Virus record (IMG/VR): IMGVR_UViG_2547132281_000004
DNA from: a virus
Lineage: Duplodnaviria > Heunggongvirae > Uroviricota > Caudoviricetes
Direction: 5' to 3' (one strand)
Length of the DNA stretch: 9,448 nt
Positions within the stretch are counted from its first letter, which is position 1. Every line of letters starts with the position of its first letter. The translations under genes and the position numbers were made by a program. Positions 1 to 9,448 of the stretch are shown piece after piece. Under the pieces are notes generated by a model, which was not told the DNA's origin, did not search any database, and was given only the letters and a program-made list of their open reading frames with translations.

Positions 1-1272
1 CAGCGTCCGTTGCGTCAGACCCGCACCCGTAAGCCGTTCCCTGAATCACTACCCCGTGACGAAAAGCGACTGTTGCCTGCGGCGCCGTGCTGCCCGAACT
101 GCGGCGGTTCACTGAGCTATCTGGGCGAGGATACCGCCGAACAGCTGGAGTTGATGCGTAGTGCCTTCCGGGTTATCCGGACGGTACGGGAAAAACATGC
201 CTGTACTCAGTGCGATGCCATCGTGCAGGCACCTGCACCTTCGCGGCCCATCGAGCGGGGTATCGCCGGACCGGGGCTGCTGGCCCGCGTGCTGACCTCG
301 AAGTATGCAGAGCACACCCCGCTGTATCGCCAGTCAGAAATATACGGCCGGCAAGGTGTGGAGCTGAGCCGTTCACTGCTGTCGGGCTGGGTGGATGCAT
401 GCTGCCGGCTGCTGTCTCCGCTGGAAGAGGCGCTTCATGGCTATGTCATGACTGACGGCAAACTCCATGCCGATGATACCCCGGTCCAGGTACTGCTGCC
501 GGGTAATAAGAAGACGAAGACCGGGCGGTTGTGGGCGTATGTTCGTGATGACCGCAATGCCGGGTCAGCGTTGGCACCTGCAGTGTGGTTCGCTTACAGC
601 CCGGACAGAAAAGGCATCCATCCGCAGACTCATCTTGCCTGCTTCAGCGGTGTGCTGCAAGCGGATGCGTACGCCGGGTTCAACGAGCTGTATCGCAATG
701 GTGGGATAACGGAAGCTGCCTGCTGGGCTCATGCCCGCCGAAAGATCCACGATGTGCACGTCCGCATCCCGTCAGCACTGACGGAAGAAGCCCTGGAGCA
801 GATCGGTCAGTTGTACGCCATAGAGGCGGATATAAGGGGAATGCCGGCAGAGCAGCGGCTTGCTGAACGTCAGCGAAAAACGAAACCGCTGTTGAAATCC
901 CTGGAAAGCTGGTTGCGTGAAAAGATGAAAACCCTGTCGCGACACTCAGAACTGGCGAAAGCGTTCGCATACGCCCTGAACCAGTGGCCGGCGCTGACGT
1001 ACTATGCAGATGATGGCTGGGCTGAGGCGGACAATAACATCGCTGAAAATGCGTTGCGGATGGTCAGTCTGGGCCGCAAAAACTACCTGTTCTTCGGTTC
1101 GGATCATGGAGGAGAGCGGGGAGCGCTGCTGTACAGCCTGATCGGGACGTGCAAACTGAACGGAGTGGAGCCAGAAAGCTACCTCCGCTATGTCCTTGAC
1201 GTCATAGCCGACTGGCCGATAAACCGGGTCGGCGAACTGCTCCCCTGGCGCGTAGCACTGCCGACTGAATAA
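1..1272 (+). CDS. IS66-family transposase (large TnpC-type ORF), 3' portion; 5' end lies outside the window
   Basis: Open frame runs from the window edge to a stop at 1270-1272. Translation carries an N-proximal CxxC...CxxC pair (CCPNCGG...CTQC) and conserved-looking blocks ([66 protein letters not shown]) that I recognise as IS66 TnpC. The Met at 10 is internal, not the true start. Confidence 0.9.
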
Positions 1273-1278
1273 CACATC

Positions 1279-1309
1279 CCCGTCAATACGGTTCTTGCTG
1301 CACGCTTAC
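1279..1309. repeat. Terminal inverted repeat (right end) of the IS66-family element
   Basis: Outer end ...CTGCACGCTTAC at 1298-1309 is the reverse complement of GTAAGCGTGCAG. The partner repeat is outside the window, so the inverted symmetry cannot be verified here. Confidence 0.55.
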
Positions 1310-1345
1310 AAAAAAATAATAGTTTTTTTTAACTCTGAACCAGCA

Positions 1346-1537
1346 ATGGTAGTGCCAGTGATGACCGGAGTTAACACCATCATGCGTGAATATCCAAATG
1401 GCGAAACAACACACCTCACTGTAATGGCTGCAGGGTTTCCATCTCTGACCGGAGATCATAAAGTCATTTATGTAGCAGCGGATCGACATGTAACTTCAGA
1501 AGAAATTCTGGAAGCAGCAATGAGACTCTTGAATTGA
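1346..1537 (+). CDS. Hypothetical small protein (63 aa); possibly the 3' remnant of a gene interrupted by the IS66 insertion
   Basis: ORF MVVPVMTGVNTIMREYPNGETTHLTVMAAGFPSLTGDHKVIYVAADRHVTSEEILEAAMRLLN. The track ORF starting at 1295 begins inside the IS terminus, so that start is an artefact. No clear Shine-Dalgarno before ATG 1346. Family not recognised. Confidence 0.3.
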   Translation: MVVPVMTGVNTIMREYPNGETTHLTVMAAGFPSLTGDHKVIYVAADRHVTSEEILEAAMRLLN

Positions 1538-1631
1538 TTTGATTCTAATGCATTGATAATAAATGATAATCATCTTTATCTGTTTGTGTGAAATTTAGAC
1601 CGTCGTATGTTGATTATTGCGATGTTTCATC

Positions 1632-1660
1632 TTATCTTTTATACGTTTGCTCCATATAAT
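1632..1660 (+). promoter_or_regulatory. Candidate sigma70 promoter for the Gns-like gene (perfect -10 TATAAT at 1655-1660, weak -35-like TTATCT at 1632-1637)
   Basis: TATAAT hexamer about 50 bp upstream of the 1710 start in an AT-rich leader; the -35 match is poor (3 of 6). Pattern-based only. Confidence 0.2.
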
Positions 1661-1709
1661 TGACACTACTGTGTACCAGGACAGTCATAACAGACTAAAA
1701 GAGGAAATG

Positions 1710-1883
1710 ATGAACATTGAAGAGTTAAAAACAAAAACAGAAGCAGATATTTCTGAATATATAACAAAAAAAATCATTGAGCTTAAGAAAAAGACCGGGA
1801 AAGAAGTTACCAGTATCCAGTTTACTGCACGGGAAAAAATGACTGGTCTTGAAAGCTATGATATCAAGATTGATTTAATCTAG
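1710..1883 (+). CDS. gnsB: Gns-family small protein (GnsA/GnsB-like)
   Basis: 57-aa product MNIEELKTKTEADISEYITKKIIELKKKTGKEVTSIQFTAREKMTGLESYDIKIDLI aligns along its full length with my recollection of E. coli GnsA/GnsB (MNIEELK...TGKEV..I.FTAREKMTGLESYD.KI). GAGG at 1701-1704 gives good spacing to ATG 1710; the track ORF from 1617 is an upstream in-frame extension. The gnsB symbol is chosen from the prophage context. Confidence 0.6.
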   Translation: MNIEELKTKTEADISEYITKKIIELKKKTGKEVTSIQFTAREKMTGLESYDIKIDLI

Positions 1884-2178
1884 CATGTTTATAGTATTAG
1901 CATCAATTTCTCATCAGATGCTATTCAACAATACAAATTATCCATAAACCTCGTTTTTACGGGGTTTTGTTATATTTAAACATTACCGAATAGATATAAA
2001 TCTCGATTGTCGATGGTATTGGTTGTGTGACAATACCTAGTCTTTCCGGTATGCCTGAAGAGAATACAAACGACAGATTATGTAAGGGAAACGCGCTGAA
2101 ACTTTCACTCTTTCATGCTGAGTGATTTGACGTTATATTTTTAGCCGCAAGTGAAGAGCAAACGAATGGAGCGACAAA

Positions 2179-2385
2179 ATGCATAAAGATCAATACACTG
2201 ATGCCCCCTCCCAGGAGCAGGTTCGTGTAAAAACTATGCTTAATAGCACCATTTCGATGGGTTACCCGGATGTTGTAATTGCATGTATAGAACATCAAGT
2301 ATCTCTGGAAGCATTCAGGGCAATTGAGGCCGCGTTAGTAAAGCACGATAAGAATACGAAGGATTATTCCCTGGTGGTTGACTGA
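2179..2385 (+). CDS. Hypothetical small prophage protein (68 aa)
   Basis: [71 protein letters not shown] with GGAG at 2167-2170, 8 nt before the ATG. It sits between the Gns-like gene and the terminase small subunit, the position occupied by ynfO/ydfO in K-12 Qin as I recall the map; identity not verified. Confidence 0.5.
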
Positions 2386-2754
2386 TCACCATAACTGCTA
2401 ACCATTCTGACCATTTCACAAGTGACAGAGTCAATATCGTATTCTGTCACTGTAATGCTAATACAGTACTGCAATTCAACTACAGCAATGCCTCGTATTT
2501 AGGTGAATTTACAATATCGTCCAGTTCGGATGCCGGCTGCATTTCTGAAGATAAGGCATTTCGGTTCGCGTATTTTCCCCTCATGCTCGTCAGTCCTGCG
2601 CGTAGTAAGAAACAGGACACTCACACTAATTTGTGTGAGCATGCTGTGATGTCCTTCTGAATTATCCCCATGCCATTATGTAACGCTCTGTTTCAGATGC
2701 TCGTCACGGTTGTCAGGCTGTCGGGTCCTCCCAGTGGGGGTCCCTGCCACGGGG

Positions 2755-2790
2755 CGGGAGCGTCGCGGAAAAAGACTAGTTTTTGCATTT
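2755..2790 (+). other. Candidate lambda-like cos site (cosN-like core about 2762-2773)
   Basis: ACGGGGCGGGAGCGTCGCGGAAAAAG resembles the lambda cos junction ...ACGGGGCGGCGACCTCGCGGGTTTTCG (12-nt cohesive end GGGCGGCGACCT) as I remember it. It lies about 175-185 bp upstream of the terminase small subunit start, as Nu1 does relative to the lambda left end, and is followed by AT-rich DNA. Confidence 0.4.
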
Positions 2791-2947
2791 CCATGGCGGC
2801 GGCAGCATGTTTGGTAATTTATTGATAATTAAAAGTTATTTCTCTTTTCACCTGTACAATATTTTTTTCTCCCTGTCATTAGACCAGTTTGCAATTAATT
2901 GAAATATATAAATAAACCTGATTTTCACCTGCCAGATGGAGTTGCTT

Positions 2948-3475
2948 ATGTCAAATGTGAGCGGGATCGGTGATGCTTATTACTGGAGTGTTTTTAAAAT
3001 CGCCGAGGCCTTTGGGCTTCACCGGGACACAGTAAAAAAACGGCTCCTCGCGGCCAACACTCCTGTGGCTGCGACTGTCAGGGGGAACCCCGTTTACGCC
3101 CTGCAGCATGTCGGGCCCGCCCTGTTTAGTGTGAAGCATGAGGCAGCAGACTCTGTTCATGATCCATCCCGTATGGAGCCGAAAGAGAGAAAGGACTGGT
3201 ACCAGTCTGAAAATGAAAGGATCAAGCTGGAAAAGGAGCAGCGAAAACTCATCCCAGTTGATGAAGTAGTCATCGTCTATTCGTCCATGAGAAAGGCTGT
3301 CGTCCAGGTTCTGGAGACAATTCCGGATGTTCTTGAACGCGATTGCGCCCTGACTCCTCAGGCCGTCGGCGTTGTACAGCAGGCCATTGATGACCTGCGA
3401 TACACTCTTCAGGAAAAATCCTACGAGGCTTGTGCTGCTGAATTAATTCCTGATGAGGAAGGAGAGAGTCTCTAG
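2948..3475 (+). CDS. Phage terminase small subunit (Nu1-like DNA-binding packaging protein)
   Basis: Immediately upstream of and coupled to the large terminase subunit. N-terminal helix-turn-helix-like segment (SVFKIAEAFGLHRDTVKKRL) and a charged block (ENERIKLEKEQRKL) resemble lambda Nu1 (AERDAEIENEKLRRE). GGAG at 2938-2941 favours ATG 2948 (MSNVSG...); ATG 2936 is an in-frame alternative. Confidence 0.8.
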   Translation: MSNVSGIGDAYYWSVFKIAEAFGLHRDTVKKRLLAANTPVAATVRGNPVYALQHVGPALFSVKHEAADSVHDPSRMEPKERKDWYQSENERIKLEKEQRKLIPVDEVVIVYSSMRKAVVQVLETIPDVLERDCALTPQAVGVVQQAIDDLRYTLQEKSYEACAAELIPDEEGESL

Positions 3476-3483
3476 GAGGAATA

Positions 3484-5583
3484 ATGGGTTTTTCATCAGC
3501 CCGAAATTTGGGAAGGGACATATCGGCAGGATTTTCCCCACCACGTCGCATGCCGATTTCGGAGGCTGTTAAAAAATTCATGCGTGTTCCCAAGGGGGCT
3601 GGTAACTCGGTGCCATGGGATCCTGAACTGACACCCTACATCATTGAGCCCATGAACTGCCTGGCATCGCGTGAATACGATGCGGTGATTTTTGTTGGTC
3701 CTGCGCGAACAGGGAAGACCATTGGTCTGATCGATGGATGGATTGTCTATACCATCGTTTGCGATCCTTCGGACATGCTCGTTGTGCAGATGACCGAAGA
3801 TAAGGCCCGCGAGCATTCTAAAAAGCGCCTTGACAGAACGTTCAGAAGCAGTGCGGCGGTAAAGAAAAGAATGAGTCCACGTCGTAACGACAATAATGTC
3901 CATGATAAGACGTTCAGGGATGGCTCGTTCCTTAAAATTGGTTGGCCCTCGGTCAATATTATGTCGTCGTCGGATTACCGGTTTGTCGCCTTAACCGATT
4001 ACGACCGTTTTCCGGAGAATATCGACAGCGAGGGTGATGGTTTCTCCCTGGCCTCAAAACGTACCACCACATTTATGTCCGCCGGGATGACTCTGGTGGA
4101 GAGCTCGCCGGGACGTGACATCTGCGACAGCAAATGGCGACGTAAGTCGCCTCATGAAGCGCCACCGACGACTGGTATTCTTTCCCTTTACAATCGTGGT
4201 GACCGCCGCCGCTGGTACTGGCCATGTCCGCACTGCGGTGAATATTTTCAGCCAGCTATGGATGCCATGACCGGCTACCGTAATGAACCGGATCCCTTTA
4301 AAGCCAGTGAGGCGGCGTATCTACTTTGCCCGCACTGCAGCGGCATTATCACTGCGGAGAAAAAGCGTGAGCTCAATAGTGCAGGAGTCTGGTTGCGTGA
4401 AGGTCAGGTCATTGATCGTAACGGCAACGTTTCCGGTGAACCGCGCCGCTCCCGTATCGCCAGTTTCTGGATGGAAGGGCCAGCTGCTGCGTATCAGACC
4501 TGGGCGCAACTGGTTTACAAATTACTGACTGCAGAACAGGAGTATGAAGCGACAGGAAGCGAAGAAACACTCAGGGCGGTTATCAACACCGACTGGGGAT
4601 TGCCTTATCTTCCTCGTGCCAGCATGGAGCAACGAAAAAGTGAACTGCTTGAGCAGCGGGCAGAGCCAGTTCCTTCCCGCAGTGTTCCGGATGGCGTTAA
4701 TTTCCTTGTGGCGACAGTGGATGTGCAGGCGGGACGTCATCGCCGTTTTGTGGTTCAGGTAACGGGCTATGGCAGCCGTGGCGAACGCTGGATTATTGAT
4801 CGTTACAACATCACGCAGTCATTGCGCAGTGACTGCGACGGGGAGAGCCAGCGAATTGATCCGGCCAGCTATCCGGAAGACTGGGATGTCCTGCTGACGG
4901 ATGTTTTTCATAAAAGCTGGCCGCTGGCCTCCGATCCTTCTCAACAAATGCGACTGATGGCAATGGCGGTGGACTCCGGCGGTGAAGACGGGGTCACTGA
5001 TAATGCCTATAAATTCTGGCGTCGTTGCCGTCGTGATGGCCTTGGTAAACGTATTTACCTGTTTAAGGGCGACAGCATCCGGCGCGCAAAACTGATCAGC
5101 CGTACATTCCCTGATAACACCGGACGAACGGGCCGCCGGGCGCAGGCCGCAGGTGATGTGCCGCTCTGGCTTCTTCAGACGGATGCCCTGAAAGACCGGG
5201 TGAATAACGCGTTATGGCGTGACTCGCCAGGTCCAGGCTATGTGCATTTCCCTGACTGGCTGGGGAGCTGGTTTTACGACGAACTGACGTATGAAGAGCG
5301 GAGCAGTGACGGGAAATGGAGTAAGCCGGGTCGCGGTGCCAACGAAGCTTTTGACCTGATGGTGTATGCCGAGGCTCTGGTCATTCTGCATGGATACGAA
5401 AAGATCCGCTGGCCGGATGCACCGGAGTGGGCGAGCCGGGAAACCTGGCTGGAGTGTGTCCCGGACAGTACCGAACCGTCACCCTCACCGGAACCGGTAC
5501 CCACGCCTGTTAAAAAACAAAAACGGAAGAAAACAGTAACTGACGATGTTAACCCCTGGCTGACTTCCGGAGGATGGTTATGA
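3484..5583 (+). CDS. Phage terminase large subunit, GpA (lambda A) family
   Basis: 699-aa uninterrupted ORF with strong SD AGGAGGA at 3474-3480. Walker A-like GPARTGKT; paired CPHCG...CPHCS motifs. Blocks align with lambda gpA from memory (VGPARTGKT vs KSARVGYSK; CPHCGEYFQ vs CPHCGEEQY; VDVQAGRHRRFVVQVTGYGSRGERWIIDRYNI vs IDSQLDRYEMRVWGWGPGEESWLIDRQII). Confidence 0.95.
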   Translation: MGFSSARNLGRDISAGFSPPRRMPISEAVKKFMRVPKGAGNSVPWDPELTPYIIEPMNCLASREYDAVIFVGPARTGKTIGLIDGWIVYTIVCDPSDMLVVQMTEDKAREHSKKRLDRTFRSSAAVKKRMSPRRNDNNVHDKTFRDGSFLKIGWPSVNIMSSSDYRFVALTDYDRFPENIDSEGDGFSLASKRTTTFMSAGMTLVESSPGRDICDSKWRRKSPHEAPPTTGILSLYNRGDRRRWYWPCPHCGEYFQPAMDAMTGYRNEPDPFKASEAAYLLCPHCSGIITAEKKRELNSAGVWLREGQVIDRNGNVSGEPRRSRIASFWMEGPAAAYQTWAQLVYKLLTAEQEYEATGSEETLRAVINTDWGLPYLPRASMEQRKSELLEQRAEPVPSRSVPDGVNFLVATVDVQAGRHRRFVVQVTGYGSRGERWIIDRYNITQSLRSDCDGESQRIDPASYPEDWDVLLTDVFHKSWPLASDPSQQMRLMAMAVDSGGEDGVTDNAYKFWRRCRRDGLGKRIYLFKGDSIRRAKLISRTFPDNTGRTGRRAQAAGDVPLWLLQTDALKDRVNNALWRDSPGPGYVHFPDWLGSWFYDELTYEERSSDGKWSKPGRGANEAFDLMVYAEALVILHGYEKIRWPDAPEWASRETWLECVPDSTEPSPSPEPVPTPVKKQKRKKTVTDDVNPWLTSGGWL

Positions 5584-5792
5584 ATCAGAATGATATTGAA
5601 GCCATGATTCAGCGTTATACGGAAGCTGAAATGGCGGTGCTGGACGGAAAATCCGTCACTTTTAATGGTCAGCAGATGACCATGGAAAACTTATCTGAGA
5701 TCCGGCAGGGGCGGCAGGAGTGGGAGCGCCGCCTTGCGGCTCTGATTACACGACGACGGGGGCATCCCGGGTACCGGCTGGCGAGGTTCTGA
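5580..5792 (+). CDS. gpW-like head-tail joining / head completion protein
   Basis: 70-aa product MNQNDIEAMIQRYTEAEMAVLDGKSVTFNGQQMTMENLSEIRQGRQEWERRLAALITRRRGHPGYRLARF resembles lambda gpW (...[55 protein letters not shown]). ATG 5580 overlaps the terminase stop (ATGA) with GGAGG at 5569-5573; position after the large terminase matches lambda gene order. Confidence 0.75.
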   Translation: MNQNDIEAMIQRYTEAEMAVLDGKSVTFNGQQMTMENLSEIRQGRQEWERRLAALITRRRGHPGYRLARF

Positions 5793-5981
5793 TGGCAATT
5801 CTTGATGATGTGATTGGCGTTTTTTCACCAGGATGGAAAGCGGCAAGGCTGCGTTCCCGTGCGGTGATCCAGGCTTATGAGGCCGTAAAAACGACGCGGA
5901 CACACAAAGCCCGACGGGAGAACCGAACTGCCGACCAGTTAAGCCAGTACGGGGCCGTGTCGTTACGTGAGCAGGCCCGTT
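5792..5981 (+). pseudogene. Portal protein gene, N-terminal fragment only (about 63 codons), truncated by internal deletion
   Basis: ATG 5792 overlaps the gpW stop (TGATG). [63 protein letters not shown] looks like the start of a lambda-family portal protein in the gene-B position, but near 5981 the frame runs into tfa-derived DNA and stops at 6031. Confidence 0.55.
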
Positions 5982-6431
5982 ATTGCACCACCAGATATTC
6001 CTGCTGGCTTTGTGGCTGTTTTCAACAGTGATGAGGCATCGTGGCATCTCGTTGAAGACCATCGGGGTAAAACGGTTTATGACGTGGCTTCCGGCGACGC
6101 GTTATTTATTTCTGAACTCGGCTCATTACCGGAAAATGTCACCTGGTTATCCCCGGAAGGGGAGTTTCAGAAGTGGAACGGCACAGCCTGGGTGAAAGAT
6201 GCAGAAGCAGAAAAACTATTCCGGATCCGGGAGGCGGAAGAAACAAAAAACAGCCTGATGCAGGCAGCGAATGAGCATATTGCGCCACTTCAGGATGCTG
6301 TAGATCTGGAAATCGCAACGGAGGAAGAAAACTCGTTGCTGGAAGCCTGGAAAAAGTATCGGGTGTTGCTGAACCGTGTTAATACAACAACTGCACCGGA
6401 TATTGAATGGCCAGTAGCACCTATAGGGTAA
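5982..6431 (+). CDS. Tail fiber assembly protein (Tfa), C-terminal ~150 aa; 5'-truncated fragment fused to the portal remnant
   Basis: From [47 protein letters not shown]...[33 protein letters not shown] the translation closely matches E. coli prophage Tfa proteins as I remember them (...[19 protein letters not shown]...[11 protein letters not shown]...PDIEWP...). The family N-terminal ~45 aa are absent; the ATG at 5967 (MSRPV) lies in portal-derived DNA. Confidence 0.8.
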
Positions 6432-6514
6432 ATTCGTAATGATTACCTAAATACGTTATTCTTTTGTTCAAAAAGTGATTTTGCTATAGGTAGGGAGTAT
6501 GTTCTTGGATTAAG

Positions 6515-6547
6515 AATAAAAAATCGCCATGAAAGAGCTTCATGGCG
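6515..6547 (-). terminator. Candidate intrinsic terminator, minus-strand orientation
   Basis: Perfect 9-bp stem CGCCATGAA/TTCATGGCG with a 5-nt loop at 6525-6547; on the minus strand it is followed by ATTTTTTATT (plus-strand A-run at 6515-6524). No T-run follows it on the plus strand. Confidence 0.4.
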
Positions 6548-7020
6548 AGTACATAAACGTACAAAATGTGATGAAAGTAGAGTGGCGTAAGCCACTATAT
6601 TAAGATATGACAATAGCGAACAAAAGTAAATAACATTTTATGGACGTTTAATTGTTAATTATAAAAACTAGAGTGCCCGATATTGTTTATCTTGCTTTAA
6701 AATAATGTACTCAAACCAAATTTTTGAGCTAAAAGCTCAAATAATATAAATGCAATGATAATGTTTAATAAGACAATTAGCTTGCTTTGTATTTTCATTT
6801 CGGAATACTGTTAAGTAACTTTGATGACCCTAACAATAGATCGGAATTTTCTTAGAGTCAATGGTCACTGTTTTTGTTTGCAAAGCAAATGTTTTGGTGG
6901 TTATAAGTTTTCCTAATATAGTCACCTATGCAACTTGTTCCGTGTGGAGATTAAAGGTTAAAATTTAATGCGAGGATGGAATTATAATATATTTTTTTAT
7001 AATTAATTTAACCTTAACAT

Positions 7021-7118
7021 CGTTGCTGGCGGCATGGAAGAAATATCGGGTCTTGCTGATATCGTGTTGGCACTTCCTTAGTGCGGTTATCGAATGGCCA
7101 GCTGTACCTGTGGGGTAA
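7021..7118 (+). repeat. Second, diverged direct copy of the tfa 3' end (last ~32 codons plus stop), detached from any tfa body
   Basis: Aligns base-for-base with 6334-6431 at roughly three quarters identity by eye. Its translation stays in frame ([32 protein letters not shown]) and keeps the Tfa C-terminal motifs WKKYRVLL and IEWP, so it derives from a once-functional tfa allele. Confidence 0.7.
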
Positions 7119-7250
7119 AAACTTTATATGGATGCTATTTTTATAATAGCTGGTAAAAACTGGCCGAACTGAAATTCACTGTTGATAAAAAAGATGTGTT
7201 TGAGTGTATGTCATTGTTTTCTTAATGGAATCCACTAGAATGCAGCGAAT

Positions 7251-7448
7251 TTAAGAAGGTGGGTTTTTATTGGAATATAAACTACAATAATGCTCAACTC
7301 GTTCGTAGAATTGTTTTTTCTTATTTCTTGGAATGCTAACCATTATATGCATTATGGGGGCGATACTTCCTGATAATTTACATGATGCATACATTGAAGC
7401 AATAAATTCAATATCATTGTCATCAAAGTTAAAGCTTTCTCCGTCCAT
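7251..7448 (-). CDS. Hypothetical small protein (65 aa) inside the second AT-rich cassette
   Basis: Minus-strand ORF MDGESFNFDDNDIEFIASMYASCKLSGSIAPIMHIMVSIPRNKKKQFYERVEHYCSLYSNKNPPS with AAGGA 6 nt upstream of the ATG. Uninterrupted frames of this length are less expected by chance in such AT-rich DNA, but a 63-aa plus-strand ORF (7333-7524) overlaps it and no family is recognised. Confidence 0.25.
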   Translation of the reverse strand: MDGESFNFDDNDIEFIASMYASCKLSGSIAPIMHIMVSIPRNKKKQFYERVEHYCSLYSNKNPPS

Positions 7449-7776
7449 TTCAATTCCTTATGTGTTTGGCACAACTGATGCTGTATCCCATGAGAATTTA
7501 TGCAAGTTGTTATGTTTGATTTGATATTGCAATGATAATTGTAGCTAATTGTTTTCAATTGAGTGAAAGTTTATTTCGAGTGATTAAGTCGAAAAAAAAG
7601 ATTTCTCACGGTTAGTAAGCATATTAGGTCAGTATTCAGATATGAATGGTATTAATGACTAAATTTTCAATCATATATGGATTTTTATGCTGATGAAGAT
7701 GTTTTATTTGGCGATTCGTCAAGCATCTTCACTTAAGTAATCGTATATTTTAAGAGTGCAAAAGAGAAAGGGACAA

Positions 7777-7876
7777 CGTTGCTCGCACTCTGGATTAAAT
7801 ATAGGGTGTTGTTAAACTGCGTTGATACATAATTGTACCGGATATTGAGTGGTCTGAAGTCCCAGTCATTAAGTAA
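7777..7876 (+). repeat. Third, more decayed direct copy of the tfa 3' end
   Basis: CGTTGCTCGCACTCTGGATTAAATATAGGGTGTTGTTAAAC...CCGGATATTGAGTGG...TAA translates to TLLALWIKYRVLLNCVDT* then, in a shifted frame, PDIEWSEVPVIK*. Tfa motifs are recognisable but the frame is broken. Confidence 0.65.
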
Positions 7877-8164
7877 TCGTTTCGTGATATGCCGCAGAAA
7901 CGTTGTATGCAATAACGTTCTGCGGTTGGCTGATGCACTTTCGAGAGTGTATTGAATAATTTCAAGCCGTTATTGTTTTTACGCGTAACACCATGAAAAG
8001 ACTGCTTATCTGTTGGGGTGTTTTTTGGGGCATATATGGGACAGAAATAGGCCACAGATAGATAGTAAGATCGAACTCAGGATGCTTTTGAAAAAATGTA
8101 ACTATCTGAAAAAACCTAGAAAGCGCCAAGGAAACCACAGAATGAGAAAAAACATCTGTGAATT

Positions 8165-9448
8165 ATGGATTTCCAGTTATATTCGCTCGGCGCAGCGTTA
8201 GTGTTTCATGAAATATTTTTTCCTGAATCATCAACGGCAATGGCGTTAATTTTGGCAATGGGAACCTACGGTGCAGGTTATGTGGCGCGTATTGTCGGAG
8301 CATTTATTTTCGGCAAAATGGGCGACAGAATAGGGCGTAAAAAAGTGCTCTTTATTACCATCACCATGATGGGGATCTGTACCACCTTAATTGGTGTGTT
8401 ACCGACCTATGCACAGATTGGTGTTTTTGCCCCCATCTTGCTGGTGACGCTGCGTATTATTCAGGGGTTGGGTGCAGGTGCGGAAATTTCCGGTGCCGGT
8501 ACGATGCTGGCGGAATATGCACCAAAAGGTAAGCGCGGAATTATCTCCTCATTTGTAGCTATGGGAACTAACTGCGGAACCTTGAGCGCAACGGCAATCT
8601 GGGCCTTTATGTTCTTCATTCTCAGTAAAGAGGAACTGCTGGCGTGGGGATGGCGTATACCGTTCCTGGCGAGCGTTGTCGTGATGGTCTTTGCTATCTG
8701 GTTACGTATGAATCTGAAAGAAAGCCCGGTCTTTGAGAAGGTTAATGACAGCAACCAACCCACAGCAAAACCTGCACCTGCTGGTAGCATGTTCCAGAGC
8801 AAATCCTTCTGGCTGGCAACAGGGCTGCGTTTTGGTCAGGCGGGTAACTCCGGGTTAATTCAGACTTTCCTTGCAGGCTATTTAGTGCAGACGTTATTGT
8901 TTAACAAAGCAATTCCAACAGATGCATTGATGATTAGTTCGATTCTCGGCTTTATGACCATTCCGTTCCTTGGTTGGTTATCCGATAAAATTGGTCGCCG
9001 GATCCCGTATATTATTATGAATACCTCCGCGATTGTGCTGGCATGGCCAATGCTTTCTATCATTGTAGATAAAAGCTATGCCCCGAGCACCATTATGGTT
9101 GCACTGATTGTGATTCATAACTGTGCGGTGCTGGGATTATTTGCTCTGGAAAACATTACCATGGCAGAAATGTTCGGCTGTAAAAACCGCTTTACCCGGA
9201 TGGCTATTTCTAAAGAAATTGGTGGTCTTATCGCTTCCGGTTTTGGTCCTATCCTGGCGGGTATTTTCTGCACCATGACGGAATCCTGGTATCCGATCGC
9301 CATTATGATCATGGCATATTCAGTAATTGGTTTAATCTCTGCGCTGAAAATGCCAGAGGTGAAAGACCGTGATTTAAGTGCGCTGGAAGACGCTGCGGAA
9401 GATCAACCGCGTGTTGTAAGAGCTGCGCAACCTTCCAGAAGTCTGTAA
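8165..9448 (+). CDS. ydfJ: MFS transporter, metabolite:H+ symporter (MHS) family, lacking the N-terminal ~30 codons (ydfJ-like 3' portion; may be a pseudogene fragment)
   Basis: 427-aa ORF, multi-helix hydrophobic, with MFS signature GKMGDRIGRKK and a second motif LSDKIGRR. Aligns with ProP from the region FDFSVYGF...FFP onward, so the first helix and the family N-terminal motif are missing. No SD before ATG 8165. Length and N-terminus match my recollection of K-12 YdfJ (427 aa), whose 5' part is separated by the Qin prophage. Confidence 0.8.
   Translation: MDFQLYSLGAALVFHEIFFPESSTAMALILAMGTYGAGYVARIVGAFIFGKMGDRIGRKKVLFITITMMGICTTLIGVLPTYAQIGVFAPILLVTLRIIQGLGAGAEISGAGTMLAEYAPKGKRGIISSFVAMGTNCGTLSATAIWAFMFFILSKEELLAWGWRIPFLASVVVMVFAIWLRMNLKESPVFEKVNDSNQPTAKPAPAGSMFQSKSFWLATGLRFGQAGNSGLIQTFLAGYLVQTLLFNKAIPTDALMISSILGFMTIPFLGWLSDKIGRRIPYIIMNTSAIVLAWPMLSIIVDKSYAPSTIMVALIVIHNCAVLGLFALENITMAEMFGCKNRFTRMAISKEIGGLIASGFGPILAGIFCTMTESWYPIAIMIMAYSVIGLISALKMPEVKDRDLSALEDAAEDQPRVVRAAQPSRSL

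Follow-up and report, generated by a model that had tools for sequence, protein, structure and literature searches.

A portal–tfa deletion junction in a Qin-type ydfJ prophage of Escherichia coli and its relation to other deletion alleles at the same site

The 5′ end of ydfJ is the integration site of Qin prophages, and Qin-locus prophages span 11–97 kb across 189 strains (PMC6379469). The Qin prophage of K-12 also abuts ydfJ; it contains the flanking accessory genes cspI, ynfN, and gnsB, and it has lost morphogenetic genes from within its late operon, the joined ends overlapping by 2 bp. Relatives in which the late region is preserved include the functional phages mEp460 and mEp460_ev081 and the prophage of CFSAN061769, which share the gene order terS-terL-W-portal...stf-tfa and keep the head and tail genes, amounting to about 19.8 kb.

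The locus described here resembles both. The term “window” denotes the whole stretch of DNA analyzed, 9,448 nucleotides in length, which is 100% identical to positions 2–9449 of NCBI contig AELE01000002.1. Like K-12 Qin, the window has the ydfJ attachment site, the same flanking genes, and a late operon shortened by an internal deletion, again with 2 bp of overlap. Like mEp460, mEp460_ev081, and CFSAN061769, it follows the terS-terL-W-portal...stf-tfa order, with W and portal residues 1–64 100% identical to theirs; unlike them, it lacks the head and tail genes (approximately 19.8 kb). We conclude, with a probability of about 0.93, that one illegitimate, homology-independent recombination deleted this DNA from a Qin-type ydfJ prophage and joined the portal gene to tfa.

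Prophage type and surviving packaging genes

The window represents the right arm of a lambdoid E. coli prophage that is of the Qin type and integrated in ydfJ. When the entire window was compared by megablast with 5,426 complete E. coli genomes, positions 1310–9448 were identified as the right arm of the ydfJ prophage. The attachment site is marked by ′ydfJ (8165–9448, plus strand), the 3′ portion of an MFS transporter gene whose N-terminus was cut off by the prophage insertion; RefSeq annotates it in syntenic loci as “ydfJ, missing N-terminus.” In two such loci (L008 and L006), ydfI, ydfZ, rspR, and ydfG lie beyond the remnant. Thus, insertion at the 5′ end of ydfJ has left a truncated gene beside ydfI, which is one mark of the Qin type; another, the accessory genes of the late region, is represented in the window by ynfN and gnsB. 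Locus L006, the portal–tfa junction of which is identical to that of the window, carries Q, a holin gene, a lysozyme gene, Rz, and a cspI/CSD gene upstream.

The accessory region (1310–2935, plus strand) was delineated using syntenic annotations, Pfam, and PHROGs. It comprises ynfN, which has lost its start codon; gnsB (1710–1883, inside an ORF at 1617–1883; Pfam GnsAB_toxin); a gene for a 68-aa protein of phrog_657 (2179–2385); and a non-coding stretch preceding the terminase genes. At the other end of the arm, the segment between tfa and ydfJ (6432–8164) is AT-rich (33.5% GC), and is collinear and near-identical in CFSAN061769, E14, ZY22049, and 13C1079T. Its sole conserved annotated ORF encodes 65 aa on the minus strand (7251–7448; WP_001421370.1) and has no match in Pfam or PHROGs; an 86-aa ORF of the same segment has no match in PHROGs. 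A strong terminator-like hairpin is found here on the minus strand (6548–6524).

Positions 1–1309 (plus strand), with which the source contig starts, are the 3′ part of an IS66-family element, including a tnpC transposase ORF (10–1272; Pfam DDE_Tnp_IS66, E = 3.5e-106). Prophage homology begins at 1310, right after the end of the element, and the right end of IS66 adjoins codon 2 of ynfN, displacing its ATG: at the 1309/1310 boundary L006 reads ...TATGAAAAAAATA, whereas the window reads ...TTACAAAAAAATA. Because the portal–tfa junction also occurs in L006, which lacks this IS, the IS66 insertion is an event separate from the deletion.

Three packaging genes on the plus strand follow the accessory region. 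The small terminase gene (2948–3475) encodes a full-length, 175-aa protein of the DUF1441 type (PF07278, E = 1.7e-44; phrog_141, E = 7.9e-65), which is 100% identical to WP_001389340.1 of LR882493 (L005). The large terminase gene (3484–5583) encodes a full-length, 699-aa protein of the gpA type with Pfam domains GpA_ATPase and GpA_nuclease; it is 99.1% identical to its LR882493 counterpart over 699 aa. The third gene (5580–5792) encodes a full-length W-like head-tail adaptor of 70 aa (phrog_118, E = 8.5e-37), 100% identical to the proteins of mEp460_ev081 and LR882493. The initial annotation had described the packaging genes as intact, and the agreement of all three, at full length, with LR882493, a prophage that keeps the full portal gene, upholds that description.

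The junction and its occurrence

The junction was resolved by ungapped three-way alignments of the window with portal genes (of mEp460_ev081 and two prophages) and tfa genes (of E14 and CFSAN061769). The T at position 5980 is of the portal type, the TA at 5981–5982 (plus strand) is common to both parents, and the sequence from 5983 onward is of the tfa type. DNA and protein alignments agree in placing the switch out of portal at 5982 and the beginning of tfa at 5981. It had been proposed from inspection of the sequence that a portal frame, recognizable for about 63 codons from 5792, is fused at about 5978–5984 to the middle of tfa, which is read in another frame. The alignments establish each of these points: portal homology covers 191 nt, i.e., 63 codons plus 2 nt; the crossover dinucleotide falls inside the proposed range; and portal residues 1–64 are followed by residues 45–193 of Tfa.

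Database searches gave the same boundaries. In a megablast search with positions 5400–5990, the terL, W, and portal DNA of 1,871 records matched up to 5982, where homology on the portal side stops, with identities of up to 99.8%. With positions 5574–6431, tfa genes of complete E. coli genomes matched from 5977 onward at 99.8%. All BLAST E-values were given as 0; the portal and tfa matches are therefore far beyond chance. A single place spanning both halves was found in none of the 5,426 complete RefSeq E. coli genomes.

Microhomology between the intact partners amounts to the TA only, i.e., 2 bp. It sits within an imperfect match of CCGTTA to CCGATA (5/6), or 8/11 over positions 5972–5982, which is suggestive at most. 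One copy of TA is kept at the junction and no bases are inserted. An overlap of this length is within chance expectation, since by our calculation two randomly joined ends would share at least 2 bp with a probability of about 0.16; for this reason, we tie the mechanism to no particular pathway. Examination of 5981–5982 revealed no IS end, filler, scar, foreign bases, or recombinase site.

It could be argued that the region is a normal gene boundary at which a naturally short portal-like ORF precedes a naturally short tfa. Indeed, gene callers predict two proteins at this place, a “hypothetical protein” of 79 aa and a Caudo_TAP protein of 139 aa, and the Caudo_TAP domain of the latter remnant is complete. 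However, the 79-aa ORF departs from its portal match exactly where tfa DNA begins, and it is devoid of most of the portal Pfam domain, while the tfa DNA corresponds to the internal part of a gene for 193 aa and begins in the middle of a codon. Full-length portal proteins measure 490–502 aa and full-length Tfa proteins 191–193 aa. This supports the initial reading of the site as a deletion junction; a normal boundary is, in our opinion, highly improbable.

At least 15 contigs, drawn from NCBI, Logan, and ENA assemblies, carry the exact 79-aa ORF of the junction; contigs of 4.94 Mb and 5.24 Mb are among them. The exact protein is on record for 13 contigs, the longest of which is a chromosome of 4.94 Mb, and it bears the name “hypothetical protein” in E. 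coli TW14425, a strain that appears in papers on enterotoxigenic E. coli. All seven loci retrieved, L006 among them, come from independent assemblies (NCBI, Logan, and ENA) and are identical over a 66-nt string across the junction. Among the junction-bearing contigs is ENA metagenome contig ETEC16-1 (L012), which differs from the window by 13 SNPs over 1,304 bp (window positions 5099–6125) and represents either the deletion allele in a more diverged background or a metagenome assembly that blended prophage paralogues. The junction is present in 0 of the 5,426 complete RefSeq E. coli genomes, and a search of the GTDB species-representative genomes for the exact 24-nt junction returned no match.

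These occurrences bear on whether the junction might be a chimeric join of repeated lambdoid prophage sequences created during assembly of a draft genome. Such an error is conceivable, as the draft contig begins inside an IS66 element and E. coli genomes harbor several similar prophages, with a median of three tfa-like places per genome. Nevertheless, both flanks are collinear with one locus, and the identical junction recurs in independent assemblies and, with 13 SNPs, in a metagenome contig. Because it is found in at least 15 public contigs, we do not regard the junction as an assembly artefact, an explanation to which we assign very little credence.

The missing interval and the two remnants

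The size and content of the missing DNA were determined from CFSAN061769, which has an apparently complete prophage at the rspB/ydfJ site, extending from an integrase and an excisionase gene beside rspB to tfa beside ′ydfJ. In this locus (L013) the breakpoints map to position 214 in portal and 20006 in tfa, and removal of 215–20006 (19,792 bp) recreates the window junction. Agreement on the right flank, i.e., tfa and downstream, is 3466/3468 with no gaps, and in the portal part 189/191. The interval holds 16 whole genes, the rest of portal, and the first 131 nt of tfa (43 codons plus 2 nt). The lost head genes are a ClpP-protease/major-capsid fusion and two small head genes; the lost tail genes are those for tail completion, U, the tube, the G and T chaperones, the tape measure, an M-like protein, L, a K-like protein, I, and J; lom and the side tail-fibre gene stf are lost also. 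Thus, as the initial annotation had suggested, a single deletion suffices to remove the head, tail, and tail-fibre genes and to reproduce the junction. With these genes gone, the prophage can no longer make particles.

The same gene order is found in mEp460_ev081, where portal is at 2831 and tfa at 22163. From tfa through to ydfJ, CFSAN061769 is 99.9% identical to the window. The terminase alleles differ from those of the window in mEp460 and CFSAN061769, the large subunit being 87% identical and the small subunit 42%. Judged by sequence comparison, CFSAN061769 is best regarded as a mosaic relative of the prophage in the window, and not as its literal ancestor.

In the mechanism that we propose, the deletion would have run from portal nt 192 to tfa nt 131, the ends being joined at the 2-bp TA, perhaps through replication slippage or microhomology-assisted end joining. 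We favor a single event over nested ones, bearing in mind that successive nested deletions could have erased earlier junctions. A history of several successive deletions, or of an adjacent deletion mediated by an IS that was later lost, would accord with the deletion-prone nature of the locus, for which at least six junction types are seen, with the IS elements found there (IS66 in the window; IS1, IS2, or IS903B in other strains), and with the 249-bp filler in the LR882493 junction, which suggests a complex history in that strain. The window junction itself, however, has no IS remnant, filler, or scar at 5981–5982, and searches of E. coli genomes found no strain sharing just one of the two breakpoints; a multi-step history is therefore judged unlikely. 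Site-specific recombination by a Pin/Gin-type invertase of the tail-fibre region is a further alternative, brought to mind by the pinQ or serine recombinase gene located just downstream of tfa in K-12 Qin and mEp460. The sites at which such invertases cross over are located in stf and neither in portal nor at codon 44 of tfa. Moreover, the prophage variant in the window has no pin gene downstream of tfa, and the two breakpoints have only 2 bp in common, leaving this alternative with a negligible probability.

What the deletion left on the portal side is the 5′ remnant of a lambda-family portal gene (5792–5982, plus strand; 191 nt), which starts at the ATG at 5792. Its ORF runs on to a stop at 6029–6031 and thus encodes 79 aa, consisting of 64 portal residues and 15 out-of-frame residues. 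Residues 1–64 are 100% identical to portal proteins of 490–502 aa from phage mEp460_ev081 and E. coli prophages; Tyr64 is conserved by coincidence, its codon being TAT in the window and TAC in the portal gene. The ORF has no Pfam hit. The portal domain PF05136 (Phage_portal_2; about 354 model positions) occupies residues 35–372 of the 490-aa homologue (E = 3.4e-82). The 79-aa ORF is accordingly a gene fragment and not a portal protein.

Clustering at 90% identity places this ORF among 133 portal N-terminal fragments of 59–104 aa, some of them on contigs of 4.4–5.2 Mb. Some members of the cluster may be further independent portal truncations, and others are partial genes at contig ends. Three PHROGs of unknown function (phrog_26857, phrog_12037, and phrog_20042) match the portal N-terminus only.

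The remnant on the other side is the 3′ part of the tail-fibre assembly gene tfa (5981–6431, plus strand), with whole codons 45–193 from 5982, followed by the stop codon. Its DNA is identical to tfa of E14 and CFSAN061769 (WP_001613101.1, 193 aa), and its protein is 100% identical to residues 45–193 of WP_001613101.1. The first 131 nt of the gene and its native start codon are gone, and the cognate stf, which is adjacent to a complete tfa, is absent. The Caudo_TAP domain (PF02413) is nevertheless covered over model positions 1–130 of 131 (E = 5.2e-44), and the remnant also matches phrog_105. The only candidate start codons are GTG at 5967 and GTG at 6012, neither with an obvious Shine-Dalgarno sequence; gene callers use the latter to obtain the 139-aa Caudo_TAP protein, and an exact look-up of the 154-aa ORF started at the former (5967–6431) found no record.

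Several ways in which the remnant could be expressed were considered. An in-frame fusion of portal to Tfa was rejected, the portal frame (5792 mod 3 = 2) and the tfa frame (0) being different and the former closed by the stop at 6029–6031. Translational coupling was rejected as well, since the ATG overlapping with the stop of the portal ORF (TGATG, 6029–6033) is out of the tfa frame. A scan of 5500–8300 for promoters and terminators found five promoter-like sites, compared with a mean of 8.1 in shuffled sequence, and gave no sign that the tfa remnant has acquired a new promoter.

Both scar ORFs, the 79-aa portal fragment and the tfa 3′ fragment, are pseudogene remnants. It should be noted that database entries in which the first is a “hypothetical protein” (79 aa) and the second a “tail fibre assembly protein” (139 aa) describe the halves of one deletion scar, and that both ought to carry a pseudogene label. 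The junction also provides a clean lineage marker; the named sources of the assemblies include enterotoxigenic E. coli (TW14425 and a metagenome sample labelled ETEC).

The sole Rfam hit of the window, IS009 (RF02111; 6193–6391, plus strand), covers model positions 1–199 of 199 with 212 bits, compared with a gathering score of 117, and lies wholly inside the tfa coding remnant. This region of tfa is kept in every deletion allele seen at the locus, and the deletion in the window, which cuts deepest on the right among them, stops 211 bp short of it. Repeated loss of head and tail genes by the ydfJ prophage could in principle reflect domestication that preserves specific parts in place of neutral decay. 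If so, the intact terS-terL-W genes might serve other resident lambdoid prophages in trans or have a role in transduction; alternatively, the preserved part might be the 3′ end of tfa, with Caudo_TAP and the IS009 candidate sRNA, which every junction type seen retains. In GCA_049980125.1 (L007, 3852–5944), which has the same junction, a 1-nt gap splits terL into ORFs of 488 aa and 208 aa; unless it is a sequencing error, this split is a hint of ongoing decay, as opposed to selection acting on the packaging genes. We consider domestication quite unlikely. The deletion described here is a case of ordinary cryptic-prophage decay, a process documented in general terms and unsurprising to the specialist.

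Deletion alleles at the ydfJ prophage

At least five junctions besides that of the window are found among prophages at this site (loci L001, L002, L003, L005, and L014). The prophages of E14, ZY22049, 13C1079T, and LR882493 have the same backbone as the window, at 96–100% identity, and have likewise lost head and tail genes by clean internal deletion. In E14, W is joined to lom with a 6-bp BLAST overlap; in ZY22049, terL is joined at about nt 794 to lom (16-bp BLAST overlap); and in 13C1079T, terL is joined at about nt 1388 to the 3′ end of stf (2-bp BLAST overlap). In LR882493, as in APEC O78, the protease gene is joined to stf, and between the two lie 249 bp of unmatched filler. All four prophages keep tfa whole, whereas the window deletion, which joins portal nt 191 to tfa nt 132 at a 2-bp microhomology, is the only one seen to cut into tfa. 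Each allele keeps sequence that others have lost; hence, no allele derives from another.

K-12 Qin differs from the window in more than its junction. In MG1655, the Nu1 homology of nohA extends to about nt 529, where stf homology starts with a 2-bp overlap, about 955 nt from the end of stf; terL, W, and portal are wholly gone, while the 3′ end of stfQ and the whole of tfaQ are kept. K-12 has a small terminase of the lambda Nu1 type (PF07471, nohA being a full Phage_Nu1 match), whereas that of the window is of the DUF1441 type, and the two have no detectable similarity. Downstream of tfa, K-12 has pinQ, ydfK, and ynfT, in place of which the window has its AT-rich module. TfaQ of K-12 is 91% identical to the Tfa of the window.

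The initial annotation had noted that K-12 Qin has a different breakpoint and had surmised an independent deletion in the same prophage region. Both points hold: the Nu1–stfQ and portal–tfa junctions differ, and neither can be derived from the other. Since the terminase types are unrelated, the K-12 and window remnants come from different mosaic relatives at one site and not from one identical ancestor, which strengthens the claim of independence. The alleles at the ydfJ locus are parallel deletions that arose on mosaic relatives sharing an attachment site. Together with the five other junctions, that of the window makes a tidy case of parallel prophage decay, and such deletions agree with the 11–97 kb size range of Qin-locus prophages (PMC6379469).
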